DNA of 64,000 bases from Pseudomonadota bacterium (lineage in GTDB: Bacteria > Pseudomonadota > Gammaproteobacteria > Acidiferrobacterales > UBA6901): NCBI GenBank assembly GCA_021819085.1, contig JAKASJ010000003.1, positions 35,272 to 99,271 of the forward strand, read 5' to 3'. The position numbers were made by a program, and so were the translations under genes. Below, piece by piece: positions 4,961-28,547 of this stretch. The notes beneath the pieces are model-generated. The model had not been told where the DNA came from, ran no database searches, and saw only the letters and a program-made list of their open reading frames with translations. How positions within the stretch are numbered: the first letter of the stretch is position 1; each line of letters starts with the position of its first letter.

Positions 4961-5023
4961 TGGGTAGATACCTCCTTCACGCTTGCTGGCAGAAACACGC
5001 TTATTATTAGTGTCGAGCACACA

Positions 5024-5039
5024 ATACAATATATTGTGT
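5024..5039 (-). promoter_or_regulatory. NrdR box upstream of nrdJa
   Basis: ATACAATATATTGTGT matches the NrdR consensus acaCwAtATaTwGtgt at 15 of 16 positions. It sits just downstream of the putative -10. A degenerate second box, ACACgcttattattaGTGT, lies at 4995-5013. Confidence 0.6.
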
Positions 5040-8949: not shown

Positions 8950-10380
8950 TTATCCCTTGATGCATGCCACCGGAACGAGCTTAACTACCTTCCGCGCGAT
9001 GCCGGCGGCGTCCGCGGCATCCACGACCGCCGTGACGTCCTTGTAGGCTTCCGGGGCCTCCTCCGCCACGCCACGCGCAGACAAGCTGCGGATGATGATT
9101 CCTTGCCGTGCAAGGTCGTCGATCACTTGGCGTCCGCGCCACCGGCGGTTTGCCTGGTGGCGGCTCATGGCTCGGCCCGCCCCGTGGCAGGCCGAGCCAA
9201 AGGAAAGCGTCATGCCCTGAGCGGTTCCAGTCATGATGTACGAGGCCGTACCCATGCTCCCGCCGATAAGCACTGGCTGTCCGGCCGCACGCAGTGCCTC
9301 GGGAATCAGCGGGTTACCGGGCCCGAGGGCGCGGGTCGCCCCCTTGCGGTGGACGAACAGCCGGCGACCTATCCCATCGACTACGTGCTGCTCTTCCTTG
9401 CAGGTGTTATGGGAGACATCATACAAGACGCGCAGTCCGGCGCGCGGTAACACCGAGGCGAACGCCTCGCGCGTCAGGTGCGTGATGATCTGCCGGTTGG
9501 CAAGCGCGCAGTTGATTCCAGCGCGCATTGCGCCCAGGTATTCCTGTCCCAGCGGCGAGGATATCGGCGCGCAGGCAAGCTCACGGTCAGGCAGATCAAT
9601 GCCGTATTCGCGGGTCGCCACTGCCATTTTTTTCAGGAATTCGGTGCCGATCTGGTGGCCGAGGCCGCGTGAGCCGCAGTGAATGCTAACCACTATCTCA
9701 TTCTCGTGCAGGCCGAATACGGTGCTCGCCACGGAATCGTATACCTCGGCTACGCGCTGGACTTCCAGGTAGTGGTTGCCGGAGCCCAGCGTACCCATCT
9801 CATCACGCTGGCGCTTTTTGGCGTGGTCGGAAACGGCGTCCGGGACCGCACCGGGCATGCAGCCCTCCTCCTCAATGTACAAGAGGTCTTCGCTGATGCC
9901 ATAGCCTTGCGACACTGCCCAGCGCGCACCGCCGGCGAGCATGGCGTCCATTTCGTCGTGTTCCAGATGTACGCGCCCGGTACTGCCGAGCCCGGCGGGA
10001 ATCCTGAAAAAGAGCACATCCGCGAGATCATTTTTCAATCCTTCAATGTCCGCCAGATCGAGCCCCGTGTGCAGGGTGCGTACCCCACAAGATATATCGA
10101 AACCCACGCCACCGGCCGATACGACTCCACCCTCGTCCGGGTCGAAGGCGGCCACGCCGCCGATGGGAAAGCCGTAACCCCAGTGCGCGTCGGGCATGGC
10201 ATAAGACGCCTTCACAATGCCGGGCAGCATTGCGACATTGGTAACCTGGTCATACACCTTGTTGTCCATGTCGCTGATGAGCTGTCTGCTTGCGAATATC
10301 ACCGCCGGGACCCGCATGTTGCCCCGCGGAGCGATTTCCCACCGGCAGCCCTCGTGTTGGGTAAGCAATGAGAGGTCCAT
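8950..10380 (-). CDS. rtcB: RNA-splicing ligase RtcB (3'-phosphate/5'-hydroxyl RNA ligase)
   Basis: 476 aa with MPDAHWGYGFPIGGV, GGVGFDISCGV, GSGNHYLEVQ, HCGSRGLGHQ and ACHGAGR. SD GGTGA precedes ATG 10380. Confidence 0.95.
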   Translation of the reverse strand: MDLSLLTQHEGCRWEIAPRGNMRVPAVIFASRQLISDMDNKVYDQVTNVAMLPGIVKASYAMPDAHWGYGFPIGGVAAFDPDEGGVVSAGGVGFDISCGVRTLHTGLDLADIEGLKNDLADVLFFRIPAGLGSTGRVHLEHDEMDAMLAGGARWAVSQGYGISEDLLYIEEEGCMPGAVPDAVSDHAKKRQRDEMGTLGSGNHYLEVQRVAEVYDSVASTVFGLHENEIVVSIHCGSRGLGHQIGTEFLKKMAVATREYGIDLPDRELACAPISSPLGQEYLGAMRAGINCALANRQIITHLTREAFASVLPRAGLRVLYDVSHNTCKEEQHVVDGIGRRLFVHRKGATRALGPGNPLIPEALRAAGQPVLIGGSMGTASYIMTGTAQGMTLSFGSACHGAGRAMSRHQANRRWRGRQVIDDLARQGIIIRSLSARGVAEEAPEAYKDVTAVVDAADAAGIARKVVKLVPVACIKG

Positions 10381-10541: not shown

Positions 10542-10976
10542 CTACACGTCCACGACGCATTGGGCCACCCATAGCCCGTCGGGGTTCAGTCCTACAGAAA
10601 GGCCGGTGTAAGTAGCGGCTTTGACTTCGACCGCCGGCTGATGGCGTTGGCGATCGATGTGCTCACCGAAAGCGGTGCCGTCAAGACGGTGATCGTCGAC
10701 ATGCACGTTAAATCGACTGAACAGCATGTGGCGCGTTGCCATTTCATACACCAGGGCGTTGAGCCAGTCCACGAGCAAAATCTCGTCGTCAGGCGCCTGG
10801 CAGGCGATAGCTACTGCCTCCCGCACAGCTACCTGCTTCGCGTTCGTGATGACCTGAGTCATGGCCAGCGCCGCCTGTTCGAAGGCTTCATTCTTCGAAC
10901 GCCCGATGCCCCGTATTCCGATGTCCGCTCCGTGCGGGAAATGTTCCCAACGGGCTTCCGTATGCCCTTGTTCCAT
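10542..10976 (-). CDS. Archease (RtcB activator family)
   Basis: 144 aa from ATG 10976. Contains [14 protein letters not shown] and ends in the archease-like C-terminus [11 protein letters not shown]. Located directly upstream of rtcB. Confidence 0.8.
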
Positions 10977-11358
10977 GGATCCATCTTGCGCCCGCAGGCG
11001 TAACCGATCAAGGCGGAAAGCGGCAATATCCGCGTCCGTATGCATATGGCGCAAAAACCACGAATCCGATCCCCGCCGCCGGCGGTCCCCGGCCAGCCGA
11101 CACCCTGCGGTTTTCCAGCAGGCGTGGAAAACGAAGCCTCTCGCCGGGCCGGCTGCCTGGAAGGGGAAGGGTTACAGTCGCATACAGGCCGGGCTGGCAA
11201 GGTTTGGACTCGTTCCGGCTCGATGCACGTATTCAGACGGAGAAAGGGACGGTCCGGAGGCAAAGGTGTTCCCTCGACTTCCGACAGAATCGGCCTGTCT
11301 TGGAAGTGCAGGGCTGTGCGGCAGGTGGCGCGGTCTCCTACTGTTGCGCGGGATACGT

Positions 11359-13491
11359 TCAGGTAGTGAGCCGACGATAGATTTCCGAGACTTTCAGCGG
11401 TAGCCTGCGCACGTCGTCGATAAGCGTCCAGTTCACGGCGCCATACATGTGCGGAAGGTAGTCTCTCGCCTCCGTGTCTATGGTGACGCAGAATGGGTGA
11501 ATCCCGTCACGCTTTGCCTCGATCAGTGCCTGACGCGTGTCCTCGATTCCGTAGTCGCCGCGATAGCCATCGTAGTCATCGGGTTTACCGTCCGACAGCG
11601 TGATCAGAAGCTTGGTGCGTGCCTCTACCTCGTTCAATAATCGGGTCAGGTGGCGGATGGTAACGCCCATGCGCGTGTAGTCTTCCGGCTTGATTCCCGC
11701 GATGCGTGCCCGTACGAGATCCGAATACGGTTCATCAAAGCGTTTGACGCGATAGAGTTCGCAGCGCTTCCGGGTGATGCCGGAAAATCCGTATATGGCA
11801 TAGCGGTCGCCCAGCACCTCGAGCGCCTCGCACAGCAGCACAAGTGCCTCACGTTCGGCGTCGTTGATCCACCCTTTGGTGGAACCGCTCATGTCGACCA
11901 TGAACATAACGGCGATATTGCGTTCCTGCTTGTGCAGTTTGGTGAGCACGCGCTCGCTCATCTCCATGCCGTGACGCATATCCGCATAGGCTTCGACCAA
12001 TGCGTCGAAATCGATATTGTCCCCGTTTTTCTGCCTCTTAAGGAGCTTTTCCTCGCCCCGGAGCGCTTCAAAGGACTTGCGCAAACTGGCGATGGGCGCG
12101 GCGTATTTCTGCCGGGTGCGGGCGACGAAGTCGTCGTCAAGCGGATGGACATCGATCTCCCGCAGAACGCACCAGTGCTTGCGATAATGTTGGCGCCGGT
12201 AGTCCCACTCGTTGTAGAGAAAGGCCCCTTCCTCGTGATAAGTCCCTTTCCAGACGTCATCGGGATTCTTTTCCTCGCCGTCACGCCGATAACTGCCATC
12301 TCCTGCCGCGACCAGGTAATCGTCGGGGATATCGCCGAGGTCCTGAACAATGGAGTCCATCATTGCCTTGACGTCCTGCGGCGGAGTCACAGGCTGACCG
12401 TCGATGGTGAGTTCATAGCGCCATTTTCCAGGTTGATCTGGGTCGGGTGTGCGCTCCACGCGGAACCGTTCGGTGTCATCTTTCGGGTCGCCTTCGAGTC
12501 CGGCGAGTTCCGTGCGCCGGCCCTTGTCATCGAGCAGGCGTGCCAGCGCGGCATGGAACTGATCCTTCTCGCGTGACAGGCGCTGGGCCATGACCTGTTC
12601 GGCGCGACCCGCCTGGAGTGTTCCCTGGTAACATATAGAAGGCGGCAGAACGTCGCCGTACAGGGCGTTCAGGGCGTCGATGGTCGTTTGAACCGAAGCT
12701 TGCGGTGCGCGTAGCGCGCACAACTGTTTCTGCCATGTATCGGGATAGGCGGTTTCATCGAGATCTTCCCGCAGCCGCTGCATGTCCCGATGCAGCCCCG
12801 GCAGATCGGCCGCAAGGCGCGCGTCCAGGCGCACGGTCTCGAGCGCATGAAAAATCTGCTTCGCTCTGTCCTGGTCTGGAAAGCCTGCGAACAGCCCGCA
12901 CAGATCTGACCGGAAGGTTCCATACCAGGTTTGTGCCCACAGATGAGCGGCCATCGCCTTGTACAGGCGAAAATTCTCATCCTTGTTAGGCATGCGGGCC
13001 AGGCTGGACGGAAGAAACAGGGTGCTGGTGTCGGTATAGACCTCTTCGCCCGGCTCGAGTTTGAGCGGTCGTCCGGACAATCCGCGCACAAAGATTTCCA
13101 GGATTCCCGATACATCGTCGAACGACATGCCGCTGACCCGGGTACGTACCCGTGCCGCATAGGCCTCTCCCTCGTGAAATACGGCGCTGGCCGGGTAAAG
13201 ACCCATTCTGTCATAAGTATCCATGGCCTGGATGATCCATGATTCGATGTCATCCGGGTCCATCAGGCGCAGACCCTCGGGCGCCTGTGCAGCAAACTGA
13301 TAGGCAAGCTCGGCGTTGGTCTTGGCGATGATCCCGATCCAACGCAGCACGAATTCCTGCTGGCTGCGGCTGAATTCCGCGAGCATTGCCGCCAGGCCCG
13401 TGGCGGTGCGACGTGATGACAACACCGGATCGAGATACTCGTCGAGTTTTTCCTCGAGCTCGATCGCGGAGAGCGGTGGGGACAGGGTCAT
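11359..13491 (-). CDS. VWA-domain activase partner of the CbbO/NorD family
   Basis: 710 aa with a C-terminal von Willebrand A domain and MIDAS motif (VMFMVDMSGSTKGW). Lies immediately downstream of the CbbQ/NorQ ATPase. Confidence 0.85.
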   Translation of the reverse strand: MTLSPPLSAIELEEKLDEYLDPVLSSRRTATGLAAMLAEFSRSQQEFVLRWIGIIAKTNAELAYQFAAQAPEGLRLMDPDDIESWIIQAMDTYDRMGLYPASAVFHEGEAYAARVRTRVSGMSFDDVSGILEIFVRGLSGRPLKLEPGEEVYTDTSTLFLPSSLARMPNKDENFRLYKAMAAHLWAQTWYGTFRSDLCGLFAGFPDQDRAKQIFHALETVRLDARLAADLPGLHRDMQRLREDLDETAYPDTWQKQLCALRAPQASVQTTIDALNALYGDVLPPSICYQGTLQAGRAEQVMAQRLSREKDQFHAALARLLDDKGRRTELAGLEGDPKDDTERFRVERTPDPDQPGKWRYELTIDGQPVTPPQDVKAMMDSIVQDLGDIPDDYLVAAGDGSYRRDGEEKNPDDVWKGTYHEEGAFLYNEWDYRRQHYRKHWCVLREIDVHPLDDDFVARTRQKYAAPIASLRKSFEALRGEEKLLKRQKNGDNIDFDALVEAYADMRHGMEMSERVLTKLHKQERNIAVMFMVDMSGSTKGWINDAEREALVLLCEALEVLGDRYAIYGFSGITRKRCELYRVKRFDEPYSDLVRARIAGIKPEDYTRMGVTIRHLTRLLNEVEARTKLLITLSDGKPDDYDGYRGDYGIEDTRQALIEAKRDGIHPFCVTIDTEARDYLPHMYGAVNWTLIDDVRRLPLKVSEIYRRLTT

Positions 13492-13532: not shown

Positions 13533-14345
13533 TTAGAACAGCGATGCGCTCAGCTCGTTGATAGCCGCGAGCATCTCGGCGTCATCGGTGAGCGTCTCGG
13601 AAATTGCGCCGCGACAGGCGCGGCGCGGTTCGATTCCGGTTACCATCAGCTTGGCGGCATGCACCAGCAGACGGGTGCTGGCCCCTTCGTCCAGGCCATT
13701 GCCTTTGAGGTTGCGCGTCATGCCGGCGAACTTCACCAGCTTTTCCGCGATCTCCGGACCGATGCCGGATTCGTGCACGATGATGCGCTGCTCCAGGTCC
13801 GAGGTGGGGTAACCGAATTCTATTCCGATGAAGCGCTGGCGGGTGCTCTGTTTCAGATCCTTGAGGATGCTTTGGTATCCAGGGTTGTAGGAGATGGCGA
13901 GACAGAATTCCGGAGTTGCCTCAAGCAGTTCGCCGGTCTTTTCCACTGGCAGAATGCGACGATCATCCGCCAGTGGATGGATCACGACAGTGGTGTCCTT
14001 GCGTGCCTCGACGATTTCATCCAGATAGCAGATTGCGCCTATTCGGACAGCGCGTGCCAGCGGGCCATCTACCCACGCGGTTTCGGCCGCGGTGATGAGG
14101 TAGCGGCCGATCAGATCCGAAGCGGTAAGGTCGTCGTGGCAGGAAACCGTGACAAGCGGTCGGCTGAGGCGCCATGCCATATGCTCCATGAAGCGCGTTT
14201 TGCCACACCCCGTGGGACCCTTCAGCAACACCGGAATCTGGTTGCGATACGCCGCTTCGAACAAGGCAATTTCGTCGCCCTGCGGTTCATAGTAGGGTTC
14301 TTTCTTGACCAGGTATTCCTTGATGCTCACTGCGTGTGCGTCCAC
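13533..14345 (-). CDS. MoxR-type AAA+ ATPase of the CbbQ/NirQ/NorQ family
   Basis: 270 aa with KEPYYEPQGDEIALFEAAY, Walker A GPTGCGKT and Walker B ICYLDEIVEA. Confidence 0.9.
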   Translation of the reverse strand: MDAHAVSIKEYLVKKEPYYEPQGDEIALFEAAYRNQIPVLLKGPTGCGKTRFMEHMAWRLSRPLVTVSCHDDLTASDLIGRYLITAAETAWVDGPLARAVRIGAICYLDEIVEARKDTTVVIHPLADDRRILPVEKTGELLEATPEFCLAISYNPGYQSILKDLKQSTRQRFIGIEFGYPTSDLEQRIIVHESGIGPEIAEKLVKFAGMTRNLKGNGLDEGASTRLLVHAAKLMVTGIEPRRACRGAISETLTDDAEMLAAINELSASLF

Positions 14346-14690
14346 GATTTCCCCTAGAATTAGAGCAGGTATTGCGCCGCGTTTGCGAGGTATTCCAACA
14401 TTCGGCGTATTGCGCGTCGGAGCCAGTATGCCAAAAAACTGAGCGCATGAAAAAAACGATTGACGCCCCTCTGCCGCTTCTCGGAGAATAGTGCGATTTT
14501 GCCGCTGTGTCCGGCCAATGATTGATATAGTCAGTCTATCCGGGCATACAAAACTTGAATCCGATAATGGGCATCAGACGGTAGCGTCGAGCGGGACAGC
14601 ACAGTATGTTTAGCCTCCCAATTCAATGCTGGTTCTTTTCAGCGTCTTGCCCAGGTTCCCTGAAGATCCGAAGGTGATGGAGGTTAGTCA

Positions 14691-15977
14691 ATGTCCGGTG
14701 CAGTCGCGACAAACGAGACCATCCTGGTCGTAGGCGGGGGCATCAGCGGAATGACCGCCGCCCTCGAAGCCGCTGAATGCGGCAAGGACGTTGTGCTGGT
14801 GGAGAAAAATCCGTCGCTGGGCGGACGCGTCAGCCAGCTCTACAAGTACTTTCCGAAGCTGTGTCACCCGACCTGCGGTATGGAGATCAATCTCCGGCGC
14901 ATCAAGGCGAACAAGCATCTGCGCGTGCTGACCTTGGCCCAAGTCGAAAAAGTCGAGGGCCGTGCCGGCGACTACACCGTGACCATCCGGCTCAGTCCGC
15001 GCTATGTGAACGAAAACTGCACGGCCTGTGGCGCGTGTGCCGATGCGGTCAGCACCGAGATCGACAACCCCTTCAATTACAAACTCAACAAGATGAAGGC
15101 GGCGTATCTTCCTTTTGGTATGGCCTACCCGCAGCGCTATGTGATCGACTCCAGCATCATCGGCACGCCCGATGCGGAAAAGGCTAAGGCCGCATGCAGA
15201 TACGACGCCATTGATTTGGGCATGAAGGAGCAGACGATGACGCTCAAGGCCGGCGCCATCATATGGGCCACGGGCTGGCGGCCTTACGATGCCGCGAAGA
15301 TCCAGCCGTACGGCTACGACCGTTATGACAACGTCATTACCAGCGTCGAGTTCGAACGCATGATGGATCCCTTCGGACCAACATCCGGCAAGCTGCTGCG
15401 ACCGTCCGATGGCAAGGAAGCGAAGAATGTGGCTTTCATCCAGTGCGCCGGCTCGCGCGATCGCAATCATCTCAAGCACTGTTCGCGCATTTGCTGCATG
15501 GCTTCACTCAAACAGTCCACTTATGTGAACGAGCAGTTCGGCGATCAGGCACAGTCGACGATCTATTACATCGATATCCGTGCCATCGACCGCCTTGAGG
15601 ACTTCTACCAGAAGGTCCGGGCCAATCCGACGGTTAAGTTTGTCAAGTCGAAAGTGGCGAACATCACTGAAGACCGTGAGAGCAGCGACGTAATACTGCA
15701 CGGTGTGGATACCGAGGGATATCACCGTTACGACAACCGCCACGATCTGTGTGTTCTGGCGATCGGCATGGAGCCGAGCATCGACGCGCGCAGCATTCCC
15801 GGCGGTGTACATGCCGATGCGAGCGGTTTTCTCGAGGCCGATGCGGCTAACGGAGCCATTTTCGGAGCTGGCTGCGCCACCAATGCGCTGGACGTGAACC
15901 GCGCGGTTCAGAGTGCCACGGCTGCATCGCTGCGGGCCATTCAGGTGATCAATAAGGTATCGGGGGCGGAGGTTTAG
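14691..15977 (+). CDS. qmoA: QmoA, HdrA-like flavoprotein of the quinone-interacting/APS-reductase-associated complex
   Basis: 428 aa with the FAD fold ILVVGGGISGMTAALEAAE and HdrA-type motifs (AFIQCAGSRD..HCSRICC). GGAGG lies 8 nt before the ATG. Confidence 0.85.
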   Translation: MSGAVATNETILVVGGGISGMTAALEAAECGKDVVLVEKNPSLGGRVSQLYKYFPKLCHPTCGMEINLRRIKANKHLRVLTLAQVEKVEGRAGDYTVTIRLSPRYVNENCTACGACADAVSTEIDNPFNYKLNKMKAAYLPFGMAYPQRYVIDSSIIGTPDAEKAKAACRYDAIDLGMKEQTMTLKAGAIIWATGWRPYDAAKIQPYGYDRYDNVITSVEFERMMDPFGPTSGKLLRPSDGKEAKNVAFIQCAGSRDRNHLKHCSRICCMASLKQSTYVNEQFGDQAQSTIYYIDIRAIDRLEDFYQKVRANPTVKFVKSKVANITEDRESSDVILHGVDTEGYHRYDNRHDLCVLAIGMEPSIDARSIPGGVHADASGFLEADAANGAIFGAGCATNALDVNRAVQSATAASLRAIQVINKVSGAEV

Positions 15978-15979
15978 AC

Positions 15980-18205
15980 ATGGCAGACATCAAGATTGGT
16001 GCCTACGTGTGCAAGGGGTGCGGTTTGGGTGAACGCCTGAACACGGCACAGCTCATGACCGTGGCCCAGCGCGAGGGCAAGGCCCAGGTGGTACGCGAAC
16101 ATGAATTCCTGTGCAACAGCGCAGGGGTCTCCATGATCAAGCAGGACATCGAAAAGGAAGGGGTCAACCATGTGGTTATTGCCGCCTGCTCGCGGCGTGC
16201 CAAGACGGATGCCTTCGGATTCGACAACGTCGCGGTCTCCCGTGCCAACCTGCGCGAAGGCGTGATCTGGGTGCAACCCGATACTGATGAGGCAAAGGAG
16301 ATCACCCAGGAGATGGCGGCCGACTATGTTCGCATGGGCTGCGCCGAGGTCGCGAAGATGCAGATCCCGCAGATCAACCCAAGCCACGGTAACAACAAGC
16401 GCATTCTGATTGTGGGCGGCGGCATCAGCGGCATGACCTCGGCGATCGAGGCAGCCAAGGCTGGTTACGAGGTGTTGCTGGTCGAGAAGACCGGGGAACT
16501 CGGAGGCTGGGTGGCAAAGCTGTACCGGCGCATCCCGTCGCACGAACCCTACTCCGACCCGATGGAAACCGGCGTGCCGGCGCTGGTCAGGCAGATCGAG
16601 GCAGACAAGCGAATCACGGTGTACCTGAATTCCACGATCAGCCGCACGAGCGGCGCACCCGGTCAGTTCAGTGTCGACATCTCCAAGGAATCGGGTGGAA
16701 CTAGCACCGAAAACGTCGGCGCCGTCATCATGGCGAGCGGCTTCGAGCCTTATGATCTCAAGAAGCTGCCAGAGCTCGGCGGCGGAAAGAGTCCGGATGT
16801 CGTAGATCAGGCAGGACTCGAGCAGCTTGCACGTGCGGCCAATGGCGCGGCCATCAAGCGTCCGTCCGATGGAAAGGAAATAAAGAGCGTGGTGTTCGTG
16901 CAATGTGCCGGCCAGCGCGACGAAAGTGGCAAGCATCTGGCGTACTGTTCCGGCCATTGCTGCAATACCAGCATTAAGCAGGCCATGTACTTCAAGGATT
17001 CAAACCCGAACGTGGACACGGTCGTGGTCTATACGGATCTGCGTACGCCGGGAAATGGTGAGGACTTCTACCGCAGTGCCCAGCGCAAGGGTGTGATTTT
17101 CACCAAGGGCACAGTGAGCGAAGTCGTCCCGGGCGCCGAGCTGCAGGTGAAGTTCAAGGACCTCATCCTGAATGACGACGCTGTCGCCAAGGCCGATCTC
17201 GTCGTCCTTGCCACCGGCATGGTCGCTAACTCCGGGGTCGACATTGATACCGCCGGCGGAGCGCCCAACGTCGAAGGGAAGACGGAGGGTGGCGAGTCTA
17301 AGGTGGTATCGATTCTCAATCTGACCTACCGCCAGGGCAAGGATCTGCCCTTGCTCAAGCACGGTTTCAACGACTCGCATTTCATCTGTTTTCCGTATGA
17401 AACCCGTCGTACCGGAATCTATTCCTGCGGACCGGTGCGTCGCCCGATGGACGCCCAGCAGGCGATCGAAGATGCGACCGGCGCCGCGCTCAAAGCGATT
17501 CAGGCGGCGGAAAATGCGGCCCTTGGCCGTGCGGCCCATCCGCGCTCCGGCGATCTCAGCTTTCCCACGTTCCGGCGCGAGGGCTGCACCCAGTGCAAGC
17601 GCTGCACGGTGGAGTGTCCGTTCGGCGCAATCGACGAGGATGAACAGCGCTACCCGCAGTTCAACGAATCACGCTGTCGCCGCTGCGGTACCTGCATGGG
17701 AGCTTGCCCGGTGCGTGTCATTTCGTTCGAAAACTATTCTGTCGATACCGTGGGCTACCAGATCAAGTCGGTGGATATCCCAGACCAGTTTTCGGAGAAG
17801 CCGCGCATCCTGGTGCTGGCCTGCGAGAACGATGCGTATCCGGCGCTCGATATGGCTGCGATGAACAAGATCCAGTACAGCGCATTCGCGCGCATCGTTC
17901 CGGTCCGCTGTCTGGGTAGCGTCAACACCATCTGGATCAACGACGCATTGACCAGCGGCTATGACGGCGTCGTGCTTATGGGCTGCCAGAAAGGAGATAA
18001 CTATCAGTGCCACTTCGTGAAGGGCTCAGAAATGGCCTATTACCGCATGAGCAAGATCGATGACACCCTGAAGGGAATGTCACTCGAAGTCGAGCGCGTG
18101 CGGACCTGCGAGGTTGCGATTACCGATATTCAGCGGGCACCGAAGATCATCAATGAAATGGCTGAAACGATCCAGAAGATCGGCCTGAGCCCCATGAAGT
18201 TCTAG
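15980..18205 (+). CDS. qmoB: QmoB, HdrA-like flavo-FeS protein with a C-terminal MvhD-like domain
   Basis: 741 aa with ILIVGGGISGMTSAIEAAK, ferredoxin motifs (CTQCKRCTVECP, CRRCGTCMGACP) and an MvhD/FlpD-type tail (ILVLACENDAYP..VPVRCLGS). Starts 2 nt after the qmoA stop. Confidence 0.85.
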   Translation: MADIKIGAYVCKGCGLGERLNTAQLMTVAQREGKAQVVREHEFLCNSAGVSMIKQDIEKEGVNHVVIAACSRRAKTDAFGFDNVAVSRANLREGVIWVQPDTDEAKEITQEMAADYVRMGCAEVAKMQIPQINPSHGNNKRILIVGGGISGMTSAIEAAKAGYEVLLVEKTGELGGWVAKLYRRIPSHEPYSDPMETGVPALVRQIEADKRITVYLNSTISRTSGAPGQFSVDISKESGGTSTENVGAVIMASGFEPYDLKKLPELGGGKSPDVVDQAGLEQLARAANGAAIKRPSDGKEIKSVVFVQCAGQRDESGKHLAYCSGHCCNTSIKQAMYFKDSNPNVDTVVVYTDLRTPGNGEDFYRSAQRKGVIFTKGTVSEVVPGAELQVKFKDLILNDDAVAKADLVVLATGMVANSGVDIDTAGGAPNVEGKTEGGESKVVSILNLTYRQGKDLPLLKHGFNDSHFICFPYETRRTGIYSCGPVRRPMDAQQAIEDATGAALKAIQAAENAALGRAAHPRSGDLSFPTFRREGCTQCKRCTVECPFGAIDEDEQRYPQFNESRCRRCGTCMGACPVRVISFENYSVDTVGYQIKSVDIPDQFSEKPRILVLACENDAYPALDMAAMNKIQYSAFARIVPVRCLGSVNTIWINDALTSGYDGVVLMGCQKGDNYQCHFVKGSEMAYYRMSKIDDTLKGMSLEVERVRTCEVAITDIQRAPKIINEMAETIQKIGLSPMKF

Positions 18206-18214
18206 GAGCTGACC

Positions 18215-18838
18215 ATGAGCGAGCTTAACAAGGTGATGGTGGAGAAGTATCGCAACGACTTCCTCAGGGAGGTCGAGGCCAACGTGGAGGAAGGAAACTG
18301 GGTCAAGATGTGCATGCAGTGCGGTGTGTGCTCAGGCTCCTGTCCATTCGGGCCGTACTGGGAGCACCCACCCCAGGAGATTTTCATGATGGTCCGTGCC
18401 GGCAAGCGTGAGGAAGTGCTGACGAGTGAGTCCATGTGGATGTGTACCTCCTGCTACAACTGCATCGTCCGCTGTCCGCGCGAGCTTCCCATTACCCACA
18501 TCATGCACGGGCTGGCGAACTACGCCCACCGCCTCGGAATTGCGCCGAAGATGAATCCGACACGCCGCTTCGCCAAGCTGTTCTGGCAGAACATCGTCAA
18601 GGGCGGGCGAGTAAACGAGCTCAAGCTGTCGATCGGCCTTTATTTCATGGATGGGTTCTCGAATGGCGTGAAGAAGGGCCTCGAAATGTTGCCCGTTGGG
18701 CTCGGGTTGCTCAAGACCGGCCGGTTGAACCCCTTTGGCCTGTTGGGTGGCGGTAAGTGCAAGGGCGCCGGCGACATCCACAAGATGTTGAAGAAGGCCC
18801 AAGAGATTGAGAACCGGCGCAAGGGTTTTGCGTCGTAA
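18215..18838 (+). CDS. hdrC: HdrC-like 2x[4Fe-4S] ferredoxin subunit
   Basis: 207 aa with CMQCGVCSGSCP and CTSCYNCIVRCP. No predicted membrane or heme-b (HdrE-like) extension. Confidence 0.8.
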   Translation: MSELNKVMVEKYRNDFLREVEANVEEGNWVKMCMQCGVCSGSCPFGPYWEHPPQEIFMMVRAGKREEVLTSESMWMCTSCYNCIVRCPRELPITHIMHGLANYAHRLGIAPKMNPTRRFAKLFWQNIVKGGRVNELKLSIGLYFMDGFSNGVKKGLEMLPVGLGLLKTGRLNPFGLLGGGKCKGAGDIHKMLKKAQEIENRRKGFAS

Positions 18839-18848
18839 GGAGCGTATC

Positions 18849-19766
18849 ATGGCGAAAAAAGAATATTCCTTTTATCCCGGCTGCTCCTCGGAGCGCAAGT
18901 CTTCCGCATCCAATTACATGGTTTCTGTCGAATCCATGTGCAAGACGCTGGACATCAAGCTCAATGAGATCCCGGACTGGAACTGCTGCGGAGCGTCTAT
19001 CGGCTATGCCGAGGGCGGCGAACTCCCGCGCCACGCGATGAATGCACGCAACATCGCATTGTCGGAGAAACACAATCCAGGCCAGAATATCGTCGCCACC
19101 TGCGCCGCGTGCTGGCTCGGAGCGAAAGAGACCCATGAGCGTCTGTCTGCGTCCGAGCAGCTGCTGGCTGATACCAAGGAGGCACTGAAGGAAGCCGGAC
19201 TGGACATGGATTATAAGGGTGAGGTTGAGATACGCCACATGGTCGAAGTGCTGATCGAGGACTTTGGGTATGATCAGCTTGCCAAGCCGGTGGTCAAGCC
19301 GCTCGAAGGTATCAAAATAGCGGGTTATGTCGGATGTCAGACCAACCGCCCCTTCGGGGTCGCCGGTGAGTCGTTCGAGAATCCGAAGTATCTCGACAAG
19401 CTGACAGAGATCATGGGTGCCGAGCCGGTCGAGAAGTACGACCAGAAAGTCACCTGCTGTGGTGGGGCACTCGCGTTCAGCGAACCGGAGAAAAGCCAGG
19501 CGCAAATCAAGAAGATCATCGAATCGGCCTACGACTTCGGAGCAGAAATGATTGTGACTCCCTGCCCCGTGTGCCAGATGAACGTCGAGGTCTACCAGGA
19601 TCAGATCAACAAGAAATATGGCACCAAGTTCCATATTCCGGTGACCTATTACAGCCAGCTCATGGCAGTTGCCTATGGCAGCAGCGCCAAGGAAGCGGGG
19701 CTCGACGGTAACGTCATCCGTGCGACCAGGCTTGAGGAAATTGCCGCAAAACCGGCAAAAAAGTAG
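18849..19766 (+). CDS. hdrB: HdrB-like subunit with two CCG domains
   Basis: Starts at ATG 18849 after AAGGAG. Motifs YPGC...DWNCCGAS and GYVGCQ...VTCCGGA...TPCPVCQ. Confidence 0.8.
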   Translation: MAKKEYSFYPGCSSERKSSASNYMVSVESMCKTLDIKLNEIPDWNCCGASIGYAEGGELPRHAMNARNIALSEKHNPGQNIVATCAACWLGAKETHERLSASEQLLADTKEALKEAGLDMDYKGEVEIRHMVEVLIEDFGYDQLAKPVVKPLEGIKIAGYVGCQTNRPFGVAGESFENPKYLDKLTEIMGAEPVEKYDQKVTCCGGALAFSEPEKSQAQIKKIIESAYDFGAEMIVTPCPVCQMNVEVYQDQINKKYGTKFHIPVTYYSQLMAVAYGSSAKEAGLDGNVIRATRLEEIAAKPAKK

Positions 19767-20608
19767 CGTAGCAAGCTGCGCCTGGCGTCGTAATCCTGCG
19801 CAGCCAGCAGCGAATTGGTTCTAGGCAGGCGATCCACTTCCGTCGGCGGGTCGCTAAAGTAGCGATTTCAGGCGCCTAATCTGAATCTGGCCGTCTGCAC
19901 CTGTGTCCAGATGACGCCGGCGCTGGGGCTGCGAGGCTCCACGCCGCCCCGTGCAGGGAGGTCATTACCTGGAATGGAGAGGCTGGCACCACCGTCCCGG
20001 ACCTCGGTGGAGCTGTGGACGCCATTTTCACGGTGGCGACTTTCCGCCGGGCGTGCCACGCGGCATGGCCATGTCCAGGCCAAAAGGAAGATCCGGCTTC
20101 CCCACGCCCCGGGGCGGACGTCATAGACGTGTACCGCGTCTCGGTTGCCGGTCCCACCTCTCTATAAAAAATCCTTCTCACGAATTCGAGGAGCAGGAAT
20201 CCCGGCGAAGGTGCGCCGGAGGGCGGTCGCTTGCGTGGGTTCTCGGCTGGCCGGTCGGGGATTTGGTCGCAAACTACCGTTTTATGGATGAACATCTTCT
20301 GTCGGTACCCGACGAAGCGCATTGCTGCCGGCGCAATGCGGTGGGTACGCAAGCCGGTTCATTCATCGCACGCGGCTGGAAATCGTTGCAACCCGCAGGA
20401 TTATCGTTCCATGAAAGTAAGTACTTGCTTTCGACATGTCGCAAAGATGCGGAGCTTTTTAGCGTTGGCGTTCGCAAGGCTTAGTCGCGGATGTGGTTTG
20501 GTATTCGCTATTTTCCCAAGGACTGCCAGGTAAGGTTGACAAGAGGGCCGGTCCGGAGTAGGTCCTTTGCGTTGATTCCAGCATCCATCGTGGAACGAGG
20601 AGGGCGTC

Positions 20609-20830
20609 ATGCGGATTGAGACCACTGACCCGATCACGGGCAATACGATCAAGGATCCGGAGGGGCATCCCTTTGTTATCGAAGGTGCCGGCGACGGGGC
20701 ACTGAAGATCTATTTCGAATCGGAAGAAAGCCGGCGGGCATATCTCGATATCGAGGTCGAGCATCCGGGCGAGGATTTCAAGATAAATCTTGATAATCCC
20801 GTCGCTATGGGTGGCGACGCGCGCAAATAG
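20609..20830 (+). CDS. Small acidic hypothetical protein (73 aa)
   Basis: GAGGAGGG lies 6 nt before the ATG. Sequence is MRIETTDPITGNTIKDPEGHPFVIEGAGDGALKIYFESEESRRAYLDIEVEHPGEDFKINLDNPVAMGGDARK. No family recognised. Confidence 0.55.
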   Translation: MRIETTDPITGNTIKDPEGHPFVIEGAGDGALKIYFESEESRRAYLDIEVEHPGEDFKINLDNPVAMGGDARK

Positions 20831-20864
20831 CTCGCCTCTGCCGGACATGCGTCCAGCCAGATGA

Positions 20865-20888
20865 CCCTCCCGCCTCATGGCGGGAGGG
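20865..20888. terminator. 10-bp GC hairpin between convergent genes
   Basis: CCCTCCCGCC-tcat-GGCGGGAGGG, between the stop of the 73-aa ORF (20830) and the stop of tusA (20903). No U-tract on either strand. Confidence 0.45.
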
Positions 20889-20902
20889 AGGGACGGTCAT
20901 GA

Positions 20903-21133
20903 CTATTGGTGTCCCTTGGCGACCACGAAAGTATAGCGTTGCGCATCCTGGCGGCTTTCGATCAGGGTATTTCCGGTTTGATTGGCCCATGCCTGCACAT
21001 CTTTGATTGCGCCCGGATCGGTGGCGATCAATTCGATGCGATCACCGGTTTTCACGGAGCCGATTGCCTTCGAAAGCCGGAGTATCGGGAGCGGACAATT
21101 CAAACCGCTACAGTCAAGACTCGTAGTGTTCAT
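20903..21133 (-). CDS. tusA: TusA/SirA-family sulfur carrier protein
   Basis: 76 aa with LDCSGLNCPLPILRLSKAI, which contains the conserved CPxP cysteine motif. Confidence 0.85.
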   Translation of the reverse strand: MNTTSLDCSGLNCPLPILRLSKAIGSVKTGDRIELIATDPGAIKDVQAWANQTGNTLIESRQDAQRYTFVVAKGHQ

Positions 21134-21483
21134 GGCTTTTCTCCTTGCTGACTGTGTTGACGTTATGGAAGGCGAGTGATGCCGCCTTCACCTGGTTTCG
21201 CCGCCCACCGCGTGCCGATGGCGGTCGAGCAGCACCTGGTCCTTGATGTACGCATGACGATGCACCATCTGCCGGTGATCAGAAGGCTGCGCCAAATCCA
21301 TTCGGCGCAGCTGCCGAATATTCCGGTGGAGTACTCGCAGATAGGCGGCATCGCCGGTCTGCAGCCTGGCCGTTGTCCGCTGCTGGCGTGCAGTGATCGA
21401 AGCTGAATCGGCCAGCCAGAACATGCCGAACGGAAGCCGGTCTTGGGCTTGCCTCTCGCCAGTCCGCCTTGTCTGCTCTGGAC

Positions 21484-23695: not shown

Positions 23696-24592
23696 CTACT
23701 TTCCGTGGGAATCCGGTGGCAATCCGGTTTCTGTCTCCCGGTGCCTTTCCAGCCGCTGTTGTTCAGAGAGCATGCGCCGGCGCTCGGCGCGTTTTTCCAG
23801 AGCATCTGGCCTGACGGGAATCGTGTTCTCCCCGAACAGTGCCTGCTTCAGAAAGCGGAATCCGAACTTCATCAGTTCGACTTCGTCGGCCATCAGGGCA
23901 TCCATCAGGTTCTGGCTAACGTCGTAGACCGTTCCGAAGCTCGGGCTGTTGAGGAACTCGCGAAAACTGTCGAGATCGTAGCTGCACATGAAAAACAGCT
24001 GGAAGCTGCGGTCGGAGGGCTTCCCGATCGTTGGTCCGCAGGAACGCTTTTTGAGGATGATCTGCCGCCAGTCACGGTTCATCTCATCGTACATATCGAC
24101 GCCCTGCTCAGTGCGATAGGTCCGTATGGTCTGTTGCCTGGGTTCGAGGTGTCCCAGGCAATGATCCTCTCTGACGACAAAGTAATGATCCTCATCGTTC
24201 GGAGAGTCCTTGGCACGCATAGACATCATGCCCAGAGCGTAATAGCGACAGGCGGTCGGACGGTCTCCGTAGACACTGCAACCTTCGTCGGTAACGAACT
24301 GGCATGCCGTAGTTTCATCGCGGGTTTTGAGTTTCAATCCAGGCATCCCGTGGCCGTCCATTTCAAACGGAACGGTGTATTGATGGAGAAACTCGAATGA
24401 TTTGAGACCCAGATGATTCTTCAGGCGCAGCACATCGTAGGGGGTAAGCGTGATGTCGATGCTCTGGCAGCACTTGTTGAAACAGGCGATGCCCTTGTGG
24501 CAGCTGAATTCGAACGTGTCGTCGAGTTCGAGCCTGACCGGGGTTACAGGGCTTTTGGGCAGAAGTTCGGAAAAATCGAATTTGTCTTGCAT
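23696..24592 (-). CDS. YkgJ-family (CxxCxxCC-type) cysteine-cluster protein, extended 298-aa form
   Basis: Motifs FSCHKGIACFNKCCQSIDITLTPYDV, ACQFVTDEGCSVYGDRPTACRYY. GAGG lies 9 nt before the ATG. Sits directly downstream of aprA, behind a terminator. Confidence 0.75.
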   Translation of the reverse strand: MQDKFDFSELLPKSPVTPVRLELDDTFEFSCHKGIACFNKCCQSIDITLTPYDVLRLKNHLGLKSFEFLHQYTVPFEMDGHGMPGLKLKTRDETTACQFVTDEGCSVYGDRPTACRYYALGMMSMRAKDSPNDEDHYFVVREDHCLGHLEPRQQTIRTYRTEQGVDMYDEMNRDWRQIILKKRSCGPTIGKPSDRSFQLFFMCSYDLDSFREFLNSPSFGTVYDVSQNLMDALMADEVELMKFGFRFLKQALFGENTIPVRPDALEKRAERRRMLSEQQRLERHRETETGLPPDSHGK

Positions 24593-24762: not shown

Positions 24763-26685
24763 TCAGTGACCAGCGGTAGGCTTCGATACGAGATCCACGT
24801 GCGGCTTCTTAAAGACCGTCCACTTCTTGGTCTTCCTGTCGTAGGTGGAGTTCACGAAGCACTTCCAGTTCTTCTCATCGATGAAGTTGTAGTCCATGCG
24901 ATAGTAGAACCCCGGATAGCGCGACTCCTCGCGGAACTGGATATGCTTCATGTGCGCTTCGGCGGTAAGAACACGGTGGTAGTTCTCCCATGCACGCAGC
25001 AGCTCATGCAAGTCCTTGGCGCGCATCTTGAGAGCATCTTCCTTCAGCATCTCAAGCTTGTCCTCGCACACGCTGAGCATCTTGGCGTTGGTCTGGTACC
25101 AGGTCGCCACACCGGCGCAATACTCGTCCATGATCTTCTGCAGACGGAACTGCAGCATCTTAGGCGTGATGTAATGCGGGTTGATGTCGATAGCGGTAGT
25201 GTAGTCCTTGTGCTGGAGGAAGGTGCGTACCGGGCGGTAGATGTCTTCTACAAGTTCATTGACCGGGGTATCGAGCTCCGGCTTCCAGCTCTTGTTGTCG
25301 AGCGCGAACTTGATCATGCCCTTGGCCGCGATACGACCCTCCGCGTGCGAGCCGGAGGAGAACTTGTGACCGGAGGCGCCTACGCCGTCGCCAGCGGTGA
25401 ACAGGCCCTTGACGGTCGTCATGGAGCGGTAGCCCCAGCTCCACTCCTTCGGTGCTCCCAGGTCTTCCGGTCCGGAAACCCAGATTCCACAGCATCCGGA
25501 GTGGGATCCCAGTAGGTACGGTTCGGTAGGCATGAGCTCCGAGGGCTTTTTCTCGGGTTCGATGTTTTCGCCCGCCCATACGCCAGCCTGGCCGATGCAC
25601 ATGTCGAGGAAATCTTCCCAGGCTTCGGCCTCGAGATGCTTGATCTCCTTCGGAGTCATGGTCTCGGCGAGCTTGGCAAGTGCGGTCGGGGTATCCATGT
25701 AAATCGGACCGCGACCTTCCTTCATCTCGTGCATCATCAGGTGGTTGCGCAGGCAGGATGCCGGCACTGCGGCCAATCCGTAGGGCGGATACTGCTTGAG
25801 CATCTCCTTGTTCTTGTCCATGTAGACTTCGCCGAAGGCGTTGACGGCCTTGGCTTTGAACAGCAGGAACCAGGCGCCCACCGGACCGTAGCCGTCCTTG
25901 AAACGGGCGGGTACGAAGCGATTTTCCATCATGGTAAGTTCCGCACCGGCTTCGGCGGCCATTGCATAGGTCGAGCCGGCGTTCCACACCGGGTACCAGG
26001 CGCGGCCCGTGCCTTCGCCCACGGAGCGCGGACGGAAGATGTTCACGGCGCCACCGGCGGCAAGCAGGCAGGCCTTGAACTTGTACACATACACCTTATG
26101 CTCGCGTACGGAGAATCCCACGGCTCCGGAGACGCGCTTTGGATCGTTCTTGTCGTTGACAAGCTTGACGATGAAAACACGTTCCTGGATGTTGTCCATC
26201 CCCAGGGCCTTCTTCGCGGCCTCGGCGACGATCACCTTATAGGACTCGCCATTGATCATGATCTGCCACTTGCCGGAGCGCACGGGCTTGCCACCGTCCT
26301 TGAGCGACTTGCCTTCGTCGCCGGGCTGTTTCCAGATCGGCAGGCCCCATTCCTCGAACAGGTGCACGGAGTCGTCGACATGGCGACCCACGTCGTACGC
26401 CAGATCGTCACGGGTGATGCCCATGAGGTCGTTGGCGACCATGCGTGCATAGTCGGCCGGGTCCTGGCCGCCCATGTAGGTATTGATCGCCGACAGACCC
26501 TGAGCCACTGCGCCGGAACGGTCCATGGCGGCCTTGTCGACCAGCTTGACCTTGAGGCCAGTGCCTTCAACCCAGCGCATCATTTCAAAGGCGCAGCCGC
26601 ACGCGGCCATGCCGCCGCCGATAATGAGGATATCAACTTCTTCCTCGACTACCTGCGGATTTCCAAAAGTTGCTTCTGTAGCCAT
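24763..26685 (-). CDS. aprA: Adenylylsulfate (APS) reductase alpha subunit
   Basis: Starts at ATG 26685 after AGGTGG (MATEATFGNPQVVEEEVDILIIGGGMAACG...). Full-length AprA similarity. The TTG at 26700 lies inside the SD and is rejected. Confidence 0.95.
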   Translation of the reverse strand: MATEATFGNPQVVEEEVDILIIGGGMAACGCAFEMMRWVEGTGLKVKLVDKAAMDRSGAVAQGLSAINTYMGGQDPADYARMVANDLMGITRDDLAYDVGRHVDDSVHLFEEWGLPIWKQPGDEGKSLKDGGKPVRSGKWQIMINGESYKVIVAEAAKKALGMDNIQERVFIVKLVNDKNDPKRVSGAVGFSVREHKVYVYKFKACLLAAGGAVNIFRPRSVGEGTGRAWYPVWNAGSTYAMAAEAGAELTMMENRFVPARFKDGYGPVGAWFLLFKAKAVNAFGEVYMDKNKEMLKQYPPYGLAAVPASCLRNHLMMHEMKEGRGPIYMDTPTALAKLAETMTPKEIKHLEAEAWEDFLDMCIGQAGVWAGENIEPEKKPSELMPTEPYLLGSHSGCCGIWVSGPEDLGAPKEWSWGYRSMTTVKGLFTAGDGVGASGHKFSSGSHAEGRIAAKGMIKFALDNKSWKPELDTPVNELVEDIYRPVRTFLQHKDYTTAIDINPHYITPKMLQFRLQKIMDEYCAGVATWYQTNAKMLSVCEDKLEMLKEDALKMRAKDLHELLRAWENYHRVLTAEAHMKHIQFREESRYPGFYYRMDYNFIDEKNWKCFVNSTYDRKTKKWTVFKKPHVDLVSKPTAGH

Positions 26686-26762: not shown

Positions 26763-27230
26763 TTACTTCGCGAGCAGCAGCTGGCTGCGGTCACACTTGT
26801 ACGGAGCCCCTTCGGTGAACAGGACAGGACTGCCGACATCCTTGATTTCCGGCTTGGGCTTGTTCGCGTACGGGTTGATCGAACCCTCGGCAGTGGTGCG
26901 GATCGGGAACTTGAAACGCTTCATGTTGCCGTTGCGGAATTTGATCGTCCACATGATCGAATCCGTGCCGCGCAAAGGCTGCACCGAACCGCCAAGCGGG
27001 ACGACGTCGGCATAATGACGTGCCTCGATGGCGTTCTGCGGGCAGATCTTGACGCAGGAATAGCATTCCCAGCACTGCTCCGGCTCCTGGTTGAAAGCCT
27101 TCATGGCATGGCCGGTCATGGAACCGTCCTTGTCCAGCAGCATCAGGTCATGCGGGCAGATGTACATGCAAGCGGTCTTGTCCTGACCCTTGCAGCCATC
27201 ACACTTGTCGGTACGTACGAATGTTGGCAT
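26763..27230 (-). CDS. aprB: Adenylylsulfate reductase beta subunit
   Basis: 155 aa with MPTFVRTDKCDGCKGQDKTACMYICPHDLM and CWECYSCVKICPQNAI, plus the AprB C-terminal tail. Confidence 0.95.
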   Translation of the reverse strand: MPTFVRTDKCDGCKGQDKTACMYICPHDLMLLDKDGSMTGHAMKAFNQEPEQCWECYSCVKICPQNAIEARHYADVVPLGGSVQPLRGTDSIMWTIKFRNGNMKRFKFPIRTTAEGSINPYANKPKPEIKDVGSPVLFTEGAPYKCDRSQLLLAK

Positions 27231-27332: not shown

Positions 27333-28547
27333 CTACTTCGCCGAATGGCCGCTCAGTTTCACTTCTACGCGTTCGTGATCCTGGAGGCCTGCGTAGTATT
27401 TGCGCAGGATTTCCAGCACTTCGGGACGGCTGAACTCGGCCGGAACGGCCGCGCCTTCCGAAAGTGCCTTGCGCAGCTTGGTACCGGACAGCAGCAGGCG
27501 GTCACCAGCTTCGTGCGGGCAGGTGCGGGCGCTTGCCATGCCGCCGCACTTGAAGCACCAGAAGGTCCAGTCGATCTTCAGGGGTTTGGTCTGCAGCGCG
27601 TCCTTCGGGATCTCATCGAAGATCTTATGGGCGTCGAATGGCCCGTAGTAATCGCCAACGCCGGCGTGGTCGCGGCCGACTATCAGATGCGAGCAGCCGT
27701 AGTTCTGCCGGAACAGCGCATGCAGCAGCGCCTCACGCGGGCCGGCATAACGCATGTCGAGCGGATAGCCGGACTGCACCACCGTGTTTTTGACGAAGTA
27801 CTTGTCAATCAGCGTGGAAATGGCGTCGGAACGGACTTCCGCCGGGATGTCGCCGGGCTTGAGCTTGCCCAGCAGAGAATGGATCAGCACGCCGTCCAGG
27901 GTTTCCACGGCGATCTTGGCAAGGTATTCGTGGGAGCGGTGCATGGGGTTGCGTGTCTGGAACGCCGCAACGGTCGACCAGCCTTTTTCCTCAAACAGCT
28001 TGCGGGTCTGGGCGGGGGTCATGTAGTTGGAGTATTTCTTGGGGAACTCGCCCTCGGAAAGGACCTTGACCGGTCCTGCCAGGTTTACCTCGCCCTGCTC
28101 CATGACCATCTTGACGCCAGGGTGTTCTAGATCGGTAGTCTTGTACACCATCATGCATTCATGGGCTTTGTCGATGGTGTATTTTTCTGCGACCCGCATT
28201 GTGGCCATCGTTTCGCCCGTTTCCTTGTCGACGAGGGCGATTTCCGAGCCGGTCTTGATGCTGTCAGCCGTTACCTTGTCCGTAGACAGGGTAATCGGTA
28301 TCGGCCAGAACAGGCCGTTGGCCATCTTCATGCCGTCGCAGACGCCTTCCCAGTCGGCGCGGGTCATGAATCCATCGAGAGGAGTGAAGCCGCCGATGCC
28401 CATCATGATCAGGTCGCCGCTTTCGCGGGAGGAAATCTTCACTTTCGGCAAAGATTTCGCGTGCTCCAGTCCGGCCTTGAGTGCGGCACCCTCAAGCAGC
28501 AGGGGCTTGAGGGCATCGCTGCCGTGCGGTTTTACAAGTTTTGCCAT
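27333..28547 (-). CDS. sat: Sulfate adenylyltransferase (dissimilatory-type ATP sulfurylase)
   Basis: 404 aa with [11 protein letters not shown]..., [13 protein letters not shown] and GRDHAGVG. Confidence 0.95.

Follow-up and report, generated by a model that had tools for sequence, protein, structure and literature searches.

A QmoAB-HdrCB gene cluster as the probable redox partner of lineage-II adenosine 5'-phosphosulfate reductase in an Acidiferrobacterales genome

When a sulfur oxidiser lacks the membrane subunit QmoC, where do the two electrons go that are released as sulfite is oxidised to adenosine 5'-phosphosulfate (APS) by the APS reductase AprBA? The acceptor decides the energy yield of the APS pathway relative to that of SoeABC, and the question is raised by a stretch of 64 kb from a metagenome-assembled genome (MAG) of the order Acidiferrobacterales (GCA_021819085.1, contig JAKASJ010000003.1). 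This whole stretch is called the window below, and whole-window counts refer to the 64 kb alone. It contains four tightly linked genes, qmoA-qmoB-hdrC-hdrB, and, about 5 kb away, the genes sat, aprB and aprA. With a rough probability of 0.75 we read the four-gene cluster as QmoAB-HdrCB (also called HdrAACB), a cytoplasmic redox partner of lineage-II AprBA working in the oxidative direction. Both the arrangement and the question about its acceptor are already known and have been in the literature since 2007, and the 64-kb window gives no new handle on the latter.

The four genes are all on the + strand, with intergenic gaps of 2, 9 and 10 nt. The first, qmoA (14691-15977), encodes an HdrA-like FAD/Fe-S flavoprotein of 428 aa, which matches the NCBIfam HdrA2 model (E 5.5e-107) over positions 136-562 of 777 and scores well under the equivalog cut-off. 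A second HdrA-like flavoprotein, of 741 aa, is encoded by qmoB (15980-18205; HdrA E 1.9e-111, with Fer4 and FlpD/MvhD), and consists, from the N-terminus, of a four-cysteine domain, an HdrA-like part, a 2x[4Fe-4S] ferredoxin domain whose two motifs span residues 536-582, and, at the C-terminus, an MvhD/FlpD domain (residues 610-735, Pfam E 1.1e-37). The third gene (18215-18838) encodes an HdrC-like 2x[4Fe-4S] protein of 207 aa (TIGR03290 E 1.6e-24) with the dicluster motifs CMQCGVCSGSCP and CTSCYNCIVRCP, and the fourth (18849-19766) an HdrB-like protein of 305 aa with two CCG domains (Pfam CCG E 3.9e-18; motifs NCCGAS and TCCGGA). For hdrB, the start was placed at the ATG that follows an AGGAG ribosome-binding site; the mechanical open reading frame (ORF) opens at TTG 18807. 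QmoA contains a single GxGxxG motif, and QmoA and QmoB have one dinucleotide-binding motif each; a second dinucleotide-binding or NAD(P)-binding motif was looked for in these two proteins and none was found. Domain calls are profile matches against Pfam and NCBIfam models, and on this basis the gaps and domains listed in an earlier note on this DNA, made from its letters without database searches, hold.

The same note had predicted no heme-b or membrane domain in the four proteins, in agreement with a hydropathy check in which no 19-residue Kyte-Doolittle window exceeded the threshold of 1.6 in any of them (maximum 1.41 overall, 0.85 in the HdrC-like protein). The nearest solved structures for all four proteins are those of the methanogen HdrABC-MvhAGD complex (PDB 5ODC, 7BKB, 8RVU), with HdrA and MvhD as the nearest relatives of QmoB and HdrB as that of the HdrB-like protein. 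Methanogen HdrA (E 8e-58) is a much nearer relative of QmoB than is the 349-aa flavoprotein 6tjr_A (E 5.5e-33), which we take to be the sHdrA of Hyphomicrobium denitrificans, and this counts against regarding the cluster as an independent Hdr-like oxidoreductase. Judged by their sequences, the four genes are real, intact and clearly functional.

To place the cluster among its relatives, one genome per species was searched with QmoB as query, and the best 80 of more than 588 relatives (65-81% identity, top match 81%), among which the species of the MAG itself does not figure, are referred to as the related loci. The order qmoA-qmoB(MvhD)-hdrC-hdrB is kept in all 80, at 65-88% identity, in Gammaproteobacteria as well as Betaproteobacteria, and the few genes that are absent fall at contig ends. 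The loci come from Acidiferrobacterales, Sulfurifustaceae, Thiohalobacter, Thiobacillus (including T. thioparus DSM 505, locus L055), Sulfuricella, Sulfurimicrobium, Gallionellaceae, Sideroxydans, Rhodocyclales, Thioploca, Marithrix and sponge symbionts. All cofactor-ligand cysteines are invariant across 72-81 orthologues. Thus ten cysteines are invariant in QmoA (75 orthologues), 21 in QmoB (81 orthologues; the N-terminal four, the HdrA-type CxxxCC set, the eight of the ferredoxin domain and the four of the MvhD domain), eight in the HdrC-like protein, and, in the HdrB-like protein, all ten that make up its two CxnCCGxmCxxC motifs (72 orthologues).

Identical protein sequences are deposited in GenBank under an Acidiferrobacterales MAG (MHB8257362-65 and MHB8406620-23), where they are labelled HdrA-family, 'hydrogenase iron-sulfur subunit', 4Fe-4S dicluster and HdrB-family; homologues carry the Joint Genome Institute names QmoA and QmoC. 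All 120 homologues listed in the protein search are close sulfur-oxidiser proteins of at least 77% identity. In a library clustered at 50%, the sulfur-oxidiser HdrB clade is reduced to one full-length representative (62% identity), and the next relatives reach at most 44%. The cluster is present and annotated in thousands of genomes, and some of the strains that have it are cultured and partly tractable. Because identical proteins occur in GenBank and the gene order is the same in 80 of 80 loci, the cluster is not due to chance. QmoAB-HdrCB is a tight, abundant and purified family and no oddity of the Acidiferrobacterales MAG.

The genes for APS reductase are on the - strand, where sat-aprB-aprA spans 28547-24763, convergent with the qmo-hdr cluster and separated from it by tusA, tetR and crp. 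The first gene of the operon, sat (27333-28547), encodes a dissimilatory ATP sulfurylase (Pfam E 3.2e-89; 535.7 bits, over the cut-off, to the NCBIfam sulfate adenylyltransferase model). It is followed by aprB (26763-27230; TIGR02060 201 bits, above cut-off; E 6e-60 to Desulfovibrio gigas AprB) and by aprA (24763-26685, start ATG 26685; TIGR02061 946.8 bits, above cut-off; E 1e-265 to D. gigas AprA 3gyx). AprB belongs to lineage II (Qmo-type), and its loop C13-KGQDK corresponds to the lineage-II motif 'K G X D/E K/R'. The KGxD/EK loop was found by Meyer and Kuever to occur in sulfate reducers as well as in sulfur oxidisers of lineage II, and they suggested it as the site at which 'QmoABC/QmoAB(-HdrBC)' docks (PMC2211403). 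Compared with the solved D. gigas and Archaeoglobus fulgidus proteins, AprB contains a six-residue insertion (DGSMTGH, residues 35-41). The insertion is common to all six extracted proteobacterial lineage-II AprB, including that of Sulfurifustis variabilis, and corresponds to the extra AprB loop reported for Thiobacillus denitrificans (PMC2211403).

The earlier note read the cluster as serving APS reductase, and a role as redox partner of AprBA agrees both with the published view and with the lineage-II loop of AprB. AprBA would convert sulfite and AMP to APS, and the two electrons would pass from the AprB clusters to QmoA and QmoB, and then via the [4Fe-4S] clusters of QmoB and the HdrC-like protein to two non-cubane clusters in the HdrB-like subunit, while Sat would form ATP and sulfate from APS and pyrophosphate. 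That the complex contacts AprBA, and that electrons flow in this direction, we infer from homology to the QmoABC complex of Desulfovibrio, which binds AprAB through QmoA, and from the published co-distribution. At the gene level, the qmo-hdr cluster and a sat-aprBA-ykgJ unit are less than 10 kb apart in the window and in loci L057, L062, L074 and L080, which belong to different classes. The apr genes are convergent with hdrB in the window, L057, L074 and L080, and in L062 they are upstream on the same strand.

Several points weigh against a partnership with AprBA. Only 4 of the 80 loci have aprA within 10 kb of the cluster, so that coupling is supported mostly by co-occurrence drawn from the literature. 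Sulfurifustis variabilis has a sat-linked AprB of lineage-II type with the same loop and insertion, and is reported to be without hdrAACB though both apr loci and aprM are present, so the pairing of AprBA-II with hdrAACB is not obligatory. In print, moreover, the function of QmoAB-HdrCB in sulfur oxidisers has been called unclear, or membrane coupling has been assumed to be impossible.

For the final acceptor, we tentatively name the quinone pool, to which the HdrC/HdrB pair would gain access by associating peripherally (as a monotopic module) with the membrane, and give this less than an even chance. It is preferred because the pair resembles SdhB and SdhE and because transfer from the APS/sulfite couple to ubiquinone is downhill. 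The best NCBIfam match of the HdrB-like protein is the SdhE 'membrane anchor' of 8-methylmenaquinol:fumarate reductase (MFR), with 179.5 bits over the full length, compared with 162 bits for HdrB TIGR03288, both scores being under the respective cut-offs. The C-terminal tail of the HdrC-like protein (residues 106-207, 102 aa) alone matches only the C-terminus of MFR SdhB (E 8.4e-8), and solved methanogen HdrC aligns to residues 21-142 only. SdhE-type CCG proteins, such as that of MFR, have no transmembrane helix and are regarded as monotopic anchors that bear the quinone site, and the CCG subunits GlpC and GlcF (glycolate oxidase) are likewise viewed as presumed quinone-side anchors.

The earlier note had taken the HdrB CCG site, in the absence of a quinone-reactive subunit, to imply a thiol/disulfide or persulfide-carrier partner, and had named an electron-confurcating link to NAD(P) or ferredoxin as another possibility. 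This step does not follow, given that CCG proteins without transmembrane segments are themselves presumed quinone-side anchors and that SdhE and SdhB are among the matches. With an HdrC tail and an HdrB-like protein that resemble the non-transmembrane module of type-E SQR (succinate:quinone reductase) and MFR, the inference 'soluble, therefore thiol-linked' is unsafe. The NCBIfam labels were also tried as a means of placing the HdrB-like protein nearer to SdhE or to HdrB, and proved uninformative. Against a quinone acceptor it must be said that the gap between the SdhE and HdrB scores is small and that 81 of 81 diverse family representatives match both models, so that the argument for quinone is suggestive only, and that reduction of quinone by the SdhE cluster is unsettled in the literature.

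A soluble disulfide is less likely than a quinone as acceptor. In the corresponding alternative, which we consider unlikely, the complex is soluble and its HdrB-type site reduces a disulfide or persulfide carrier (DsrC, TusA or a glutathione-like compound) with electrons from sulfite. Such a site fits with the four proteins having no transmembrane helices, with heterodisulfide reductases as their nearest solved structures, and with the invariance of the ten cysteines that bind the non-cubane clusters, as in disulfide reduction by methanogen HdrB; the same ten-cysteine motif is, however, kept in quinone-linked SdhE. The energetics are also unfavourable. The APS/sulfite couple is at -60 mV and ordinary disulfides are at about -140 to -270 mV, so that by textbook potentials transfer to ubiquinone is downhill and transfer to typical disulfides uphill. 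The oxidative Dsr pathway is not known to have a pool of oxidised disulfide that requires reduction.

The window does encode thiol-type proteins, of which TusA (20903-21133, -; Pfam E 5.3e-22) is the closest to the cluster. Its gene is located 1.1 kb past hdrB, as the earlier note had pointed out in linking TusA with the HdrB site. The position stands, but the link is weakened, since tusA, a minus-strand gene, converges on the cluster and is rarely syntenic with it: a TusA-like gene is found within 10 kb in only 4-5 of the 80 loci. In the window tusA is downstream of, and co-oriented with, a TetR gene, an arrangement kept only in the closest relative (L003). Upstream of sat are genes for a DsrE-like protein (29335-29874, -) and a DsbG-like thiol:disulfide interchange protein (30220-30849, -), the former with a lipoprotein-type signal peptide that would place it in the periplasm. 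No DsrC-type C-terminus was found in the window, so DsrC is absent from it, and a thiol-type partner sought among the conserved neighbours of the 80 loci was not found either. A TauE/SafE sulfite exporter gene (32981-33736, +) is likewise upstream of sat; TauE together with an unannotated ORF of about 220 aa precedes sat in S. variabilis (L081) and in L085 too.

The spacer between hdrB and tusA (19767-20902) gave no Rfam family at E <= 0.1 and no repeats within the window, and in the related loci it is conserved only as an ORF of 73 aa (20609-20830, +), which has no Pfam match and is 63% conserved in L002. No coding or conservation was detectable in its first ~830 bp. Two terminator-like hairpins are found in the spacer on the + strand (20439-20452 and 20487-20508). 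Over the region 14200-21300, promoter-like and terminator-like sites were not commoner than in shuffled sequence.

More doubtful still is flavin-based bifurcation, in which the two HdrA-like flavins would divide the electrons from sulfite between a low-potential acceptor (ferredoxin, or NAD(P)+ with the help of a partner) and a high-potential one reached via HdrCB. If true, CO2 fixation would obtain its reductant with no need of reverse electron flow. The HdrA/MvhD/HdrC/HdrB architecture is whole and its ligands are invariant, including those of the QmoB ferredoxin domain and the MvhD [2Fe-2S] site, yet QmoA and QmoB contain no NAD(P)-binding motif, and the conserved neighbours of the cluster include no gene for ferredoxin, Rnf or Nfn. 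With a donor at -60 mV and ubiquinone on the high-potential arm, reduction of NAD+ or ferredoxin is by textbook potentials not exergonic under standard conditions. Bifurcation or confurcation by Qmo/Hdr, with reduction of ferredoxin or NAD+, has already been proposed in print. A pair of cbbQ/cbbO-like genes, which is head-to-head with the cluster in about 25 of the 80 loci, speaks for this reading, but the adjacency may be mere inherited synteny.

In the window this pair consists of a CbbQ/NorQ-type AAA+ ATPase gene (13533-14345, -), head-to-head with qmoA across 345 intergenic nt, and a gene for a CbbO/NorD-type VWA protein that matches NorD (11359-13491, -). The CbbQ-like protein scores 372 bits to Acidithiobacillus ferrooxidans CbbQ and 342 bits to NorQ. 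The pair is also found at L082 (8756-11699); in a Burkholderiales MAG it directly follows sat-aprBA-ykgJ. A Rubisco large-subunit motif was sought in the window and in 85 fetched loci, and none was found. Possible roles for the orphan pair are those of a Rubisco activase that has been relocated, or of a chaperone connected with Apr/Qmo. A literature search gave no paper describing a link between cbbQ/cbbO and qmo; three papers contain both sets of terms, and one of these deals with the two apart from each other.

A second neighbour, ykgJ (23696-24592, -), encodes a YkgJ-family CxxCxxCC protein of 298 aa (PF03692 E 1.2e-9) and is probably the fourth gene of the sat-aprBA unit. It is directly downstream of aprA, as it is in L057, L062, L074, L080, L082 and L084/L085, which represent Gamma- and Betaproteobacteria, and in S. 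variabilis it is found 4.6 kb from aprA, annotated as '50S rRNA methyltransferase'. At E <= 1e-10 YkgJ has 2238 homologues, and those listed, 120 in number, share 60% identity or more with it. The literature search turned up no paper in which YkgJ is paired with apr. The ykgJ gene after aprA and the orphan cbbQ/cbbO-like pair are two unreported conserved neighbours. One could go further and picture a bifurcating sulfite/APS oxidoreductase in which one electron reaches quinone by way of a monotopic, SdhE-like HdrCB and the other is passed to ferredoxin by the ferredoxin or MvhD domains of QmoB, with YkgJ and the Rubisco-less CbbQ/NorQ-CbbO/NorD pair as dedicated accessory factors. It would supply autotrophs with low-potential reductant without reverse electron transport, and we regard it as improbable.

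The betaproteobacterial loci have other neighbours. In 28 of them (L016, L019 and others) the cluster is immediately preceded, on its own strand, by a gene for a 183-aa Metallophos_2 phosphoesterase. In 13 loci a gene that by eye resembles one for inorganic pyrophosphatase is found further upstream, and in 17 a cysteine-free protein of 119 aa follows hdrB. None of these three is present in the window.

The weakest explanation, that the cluster is an independent Hdr-like oxidoreductase merely co-occurring with aprBA, draws on the 76 of 80 loci without aprA within 10 kb, on commonest neighbours that are cbbQ/cbbO-like (gamma) or metallophosphoesterase and pyrophosphatase (beta) genes, and on S. 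variabilis, which has sat-aprBA without hdrAACB, but we hold it to be very improbable in view of the recurring proximity of sat-aprBA in the window and four loci of different lineages, the published AprA phylogeny with its clades split by Qmo, QmoAB-HdrBC or AprM content, the orthology of QmoA and QmoB to subunits shown to bind AprAB, and a gene order unlike that of sHdr (hdrC1B1A-hyp-hdrC2B2).

Does the cluster, as a partner of AprBA, replace the membrane anchors AprM and QmoC? No aprM precedes aprBA, as had been noted before; the gap between sat and aprB is 102 nt and leaves no room for it. Candidates for aprM and qmoC are absent from the 64-kb window, in which the only ORFs with multiple transmembrane segments are TauE, a major facilitator superfamily transporter and YGGT. 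The qmoC model NF038018 gives 51 bits to the HdrC-like protein (cut-off 300) and covers only positions 4-93 of 360. However, cultured relatives from the same order also possess aprM, together with another aprBA, of lineage I, and in Sulfuricaulis limicola aprM-aprAB (lineage I), sat-aprAB and hdrAACB are all found together (Umezawa et al. 2016). To say on the basis of 64 kb that the cluster replaces AprM is overstated, and it is quite possible that aprM is located elsewhere in the Acidiferrobacterales MAG.

Two further observations from the window concern genes away from the apr and qmo-hdr loci. The large subunit of ribonucleotide reductase (1514-5029, -; 1171 aa) contains an intein that includes a homing-endonuclease domain of the LAGLIDADG type (Pfam Intein_splicing, LAGLIDADG_3). 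Just past cbbO, genes for RtcB RNA ligase and its activator archease are found together (8950-10380, -, and 10542-11054, -), unrelated to the cluster.

The qmoAB-hdrCB layout had been regarded in the earlier note as one known from Gram-positive sulfate reducers, but it is not restricted to these and has been published for several proteobacterial sulfur oxidisers. QmoAB(-HdrBC) was listed for Thiobacillus denitrificans by Meyer and Kuever (2007/2008). In Thiolapillus brandeum Hiromi 1, 'qmoAB-hdrBC' does not adjoin aprAB, and AprM and QmoC are absent, the same being the case in T. denitrificans (Nunoura et al. 2014). The hdrAACB genes (SCL_2523-2520) have been reported for Sulfuricaulis limicola, which like the MAG belongs to the Acidiferrobacterales (Umezawa et al. 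2016), and 'HdrAACB/QmoABHdrCB' was surveyed in 82 sulfur oxidisers by Watanabe et al. (2019). The layout also appears in classifiers and surveys (DiSCo, 2021; Neukirchen et al.), the AprA of sulfur oxidisers with QmoAB-HdrBC forms a clade of its own (Neukirchen 2023), and a survey from 2024 used 'aprM/aprBA-I or aprBA-II/hdrAACB' as standard pathway modules.

Among known systems, the cluster differs from sHdr, which has the order C1-B1-A-hyp-C2-B2 and a short sHdrA, whereas the order in the window is A-A-C-B with a single C and a single B. AprM (lineage I, Allochromatium vinosum type) has the same proposed purpose of taking the electrons from AprBA, but it is an integral membrane protein, and its gene immediately precedes aprBA. 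With SdhB-SdhE of type-E SQR/MFR the cluster shares a '10-cysteine' CCG protein without transmembrane helices and a dicluster Fe-S subunit. The flavoprotein partner there is SdhA, whereas the window cluster has HdrA-like proteins and no sdhA, and the scores remain far under the cut-offs (SdhE 179.5 versus 500 bits, SdhB 62.6 versus 600 bits); the resemblance may serve as a lead for the mechanism, not as membership.

The methanogen HdrABC-MvhAGD complex has matching motifs for FAD, [4Fe-4S], the MvhD [2Fe-2S] cluster and the two non-cubane clusters. In the window, HdrA is split in two proteins, with MvhD fused to the second, there is no hydrogenase or formate dehydrogenase partner, and the substrate CoM-S-S-CoB is nonexistent in these bacteria. 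The scores against the methanogen equivalogs are also below the cut-offs, with 359 and 374 versus 1100 bits for HdrA, 86.5 versus 160 for HdrC and 162 versus 345 for HdrB.

The QmoABC complex of sulfate reducers and Chlorobi (Desulfovibrio, Archaeoglobus and Chlorobaculum tepidum) has the same QmoA/QmoB architecture, including the MvhD-like tail, and the same role as electron link of AprBA. Its QmoC joins an HdrC-like domain and an HdrE-type dihaem cytochrome b in one protein, of which the window cluster has a counterpart to the Fe-S half only; in place of QmoC it has a separate HdrB-like CCG protein. In the Gram-positive QmoAB-HdrBC/QmoAB-HdrD of Desulfotomaculum and its relatives, soluble Hdr-type subunits likewise stand for QmoC, but that system works reductively and its AprA clade differs from that of the sulfur oxidisers (Neukirchen 2023). 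With the QmoAB-HdrBC/HdrAACB of sulfur oxidisers, finally, the cluster shares the same four genes in the same order, the lack of QmoC or another membrane subunit, and the company of lineage-II aprBA and sat. HdrAACB is often not adjacent to apr in those organisms, and in the window apr is 5 kb off and convergent; there is no difference of substance between the two.

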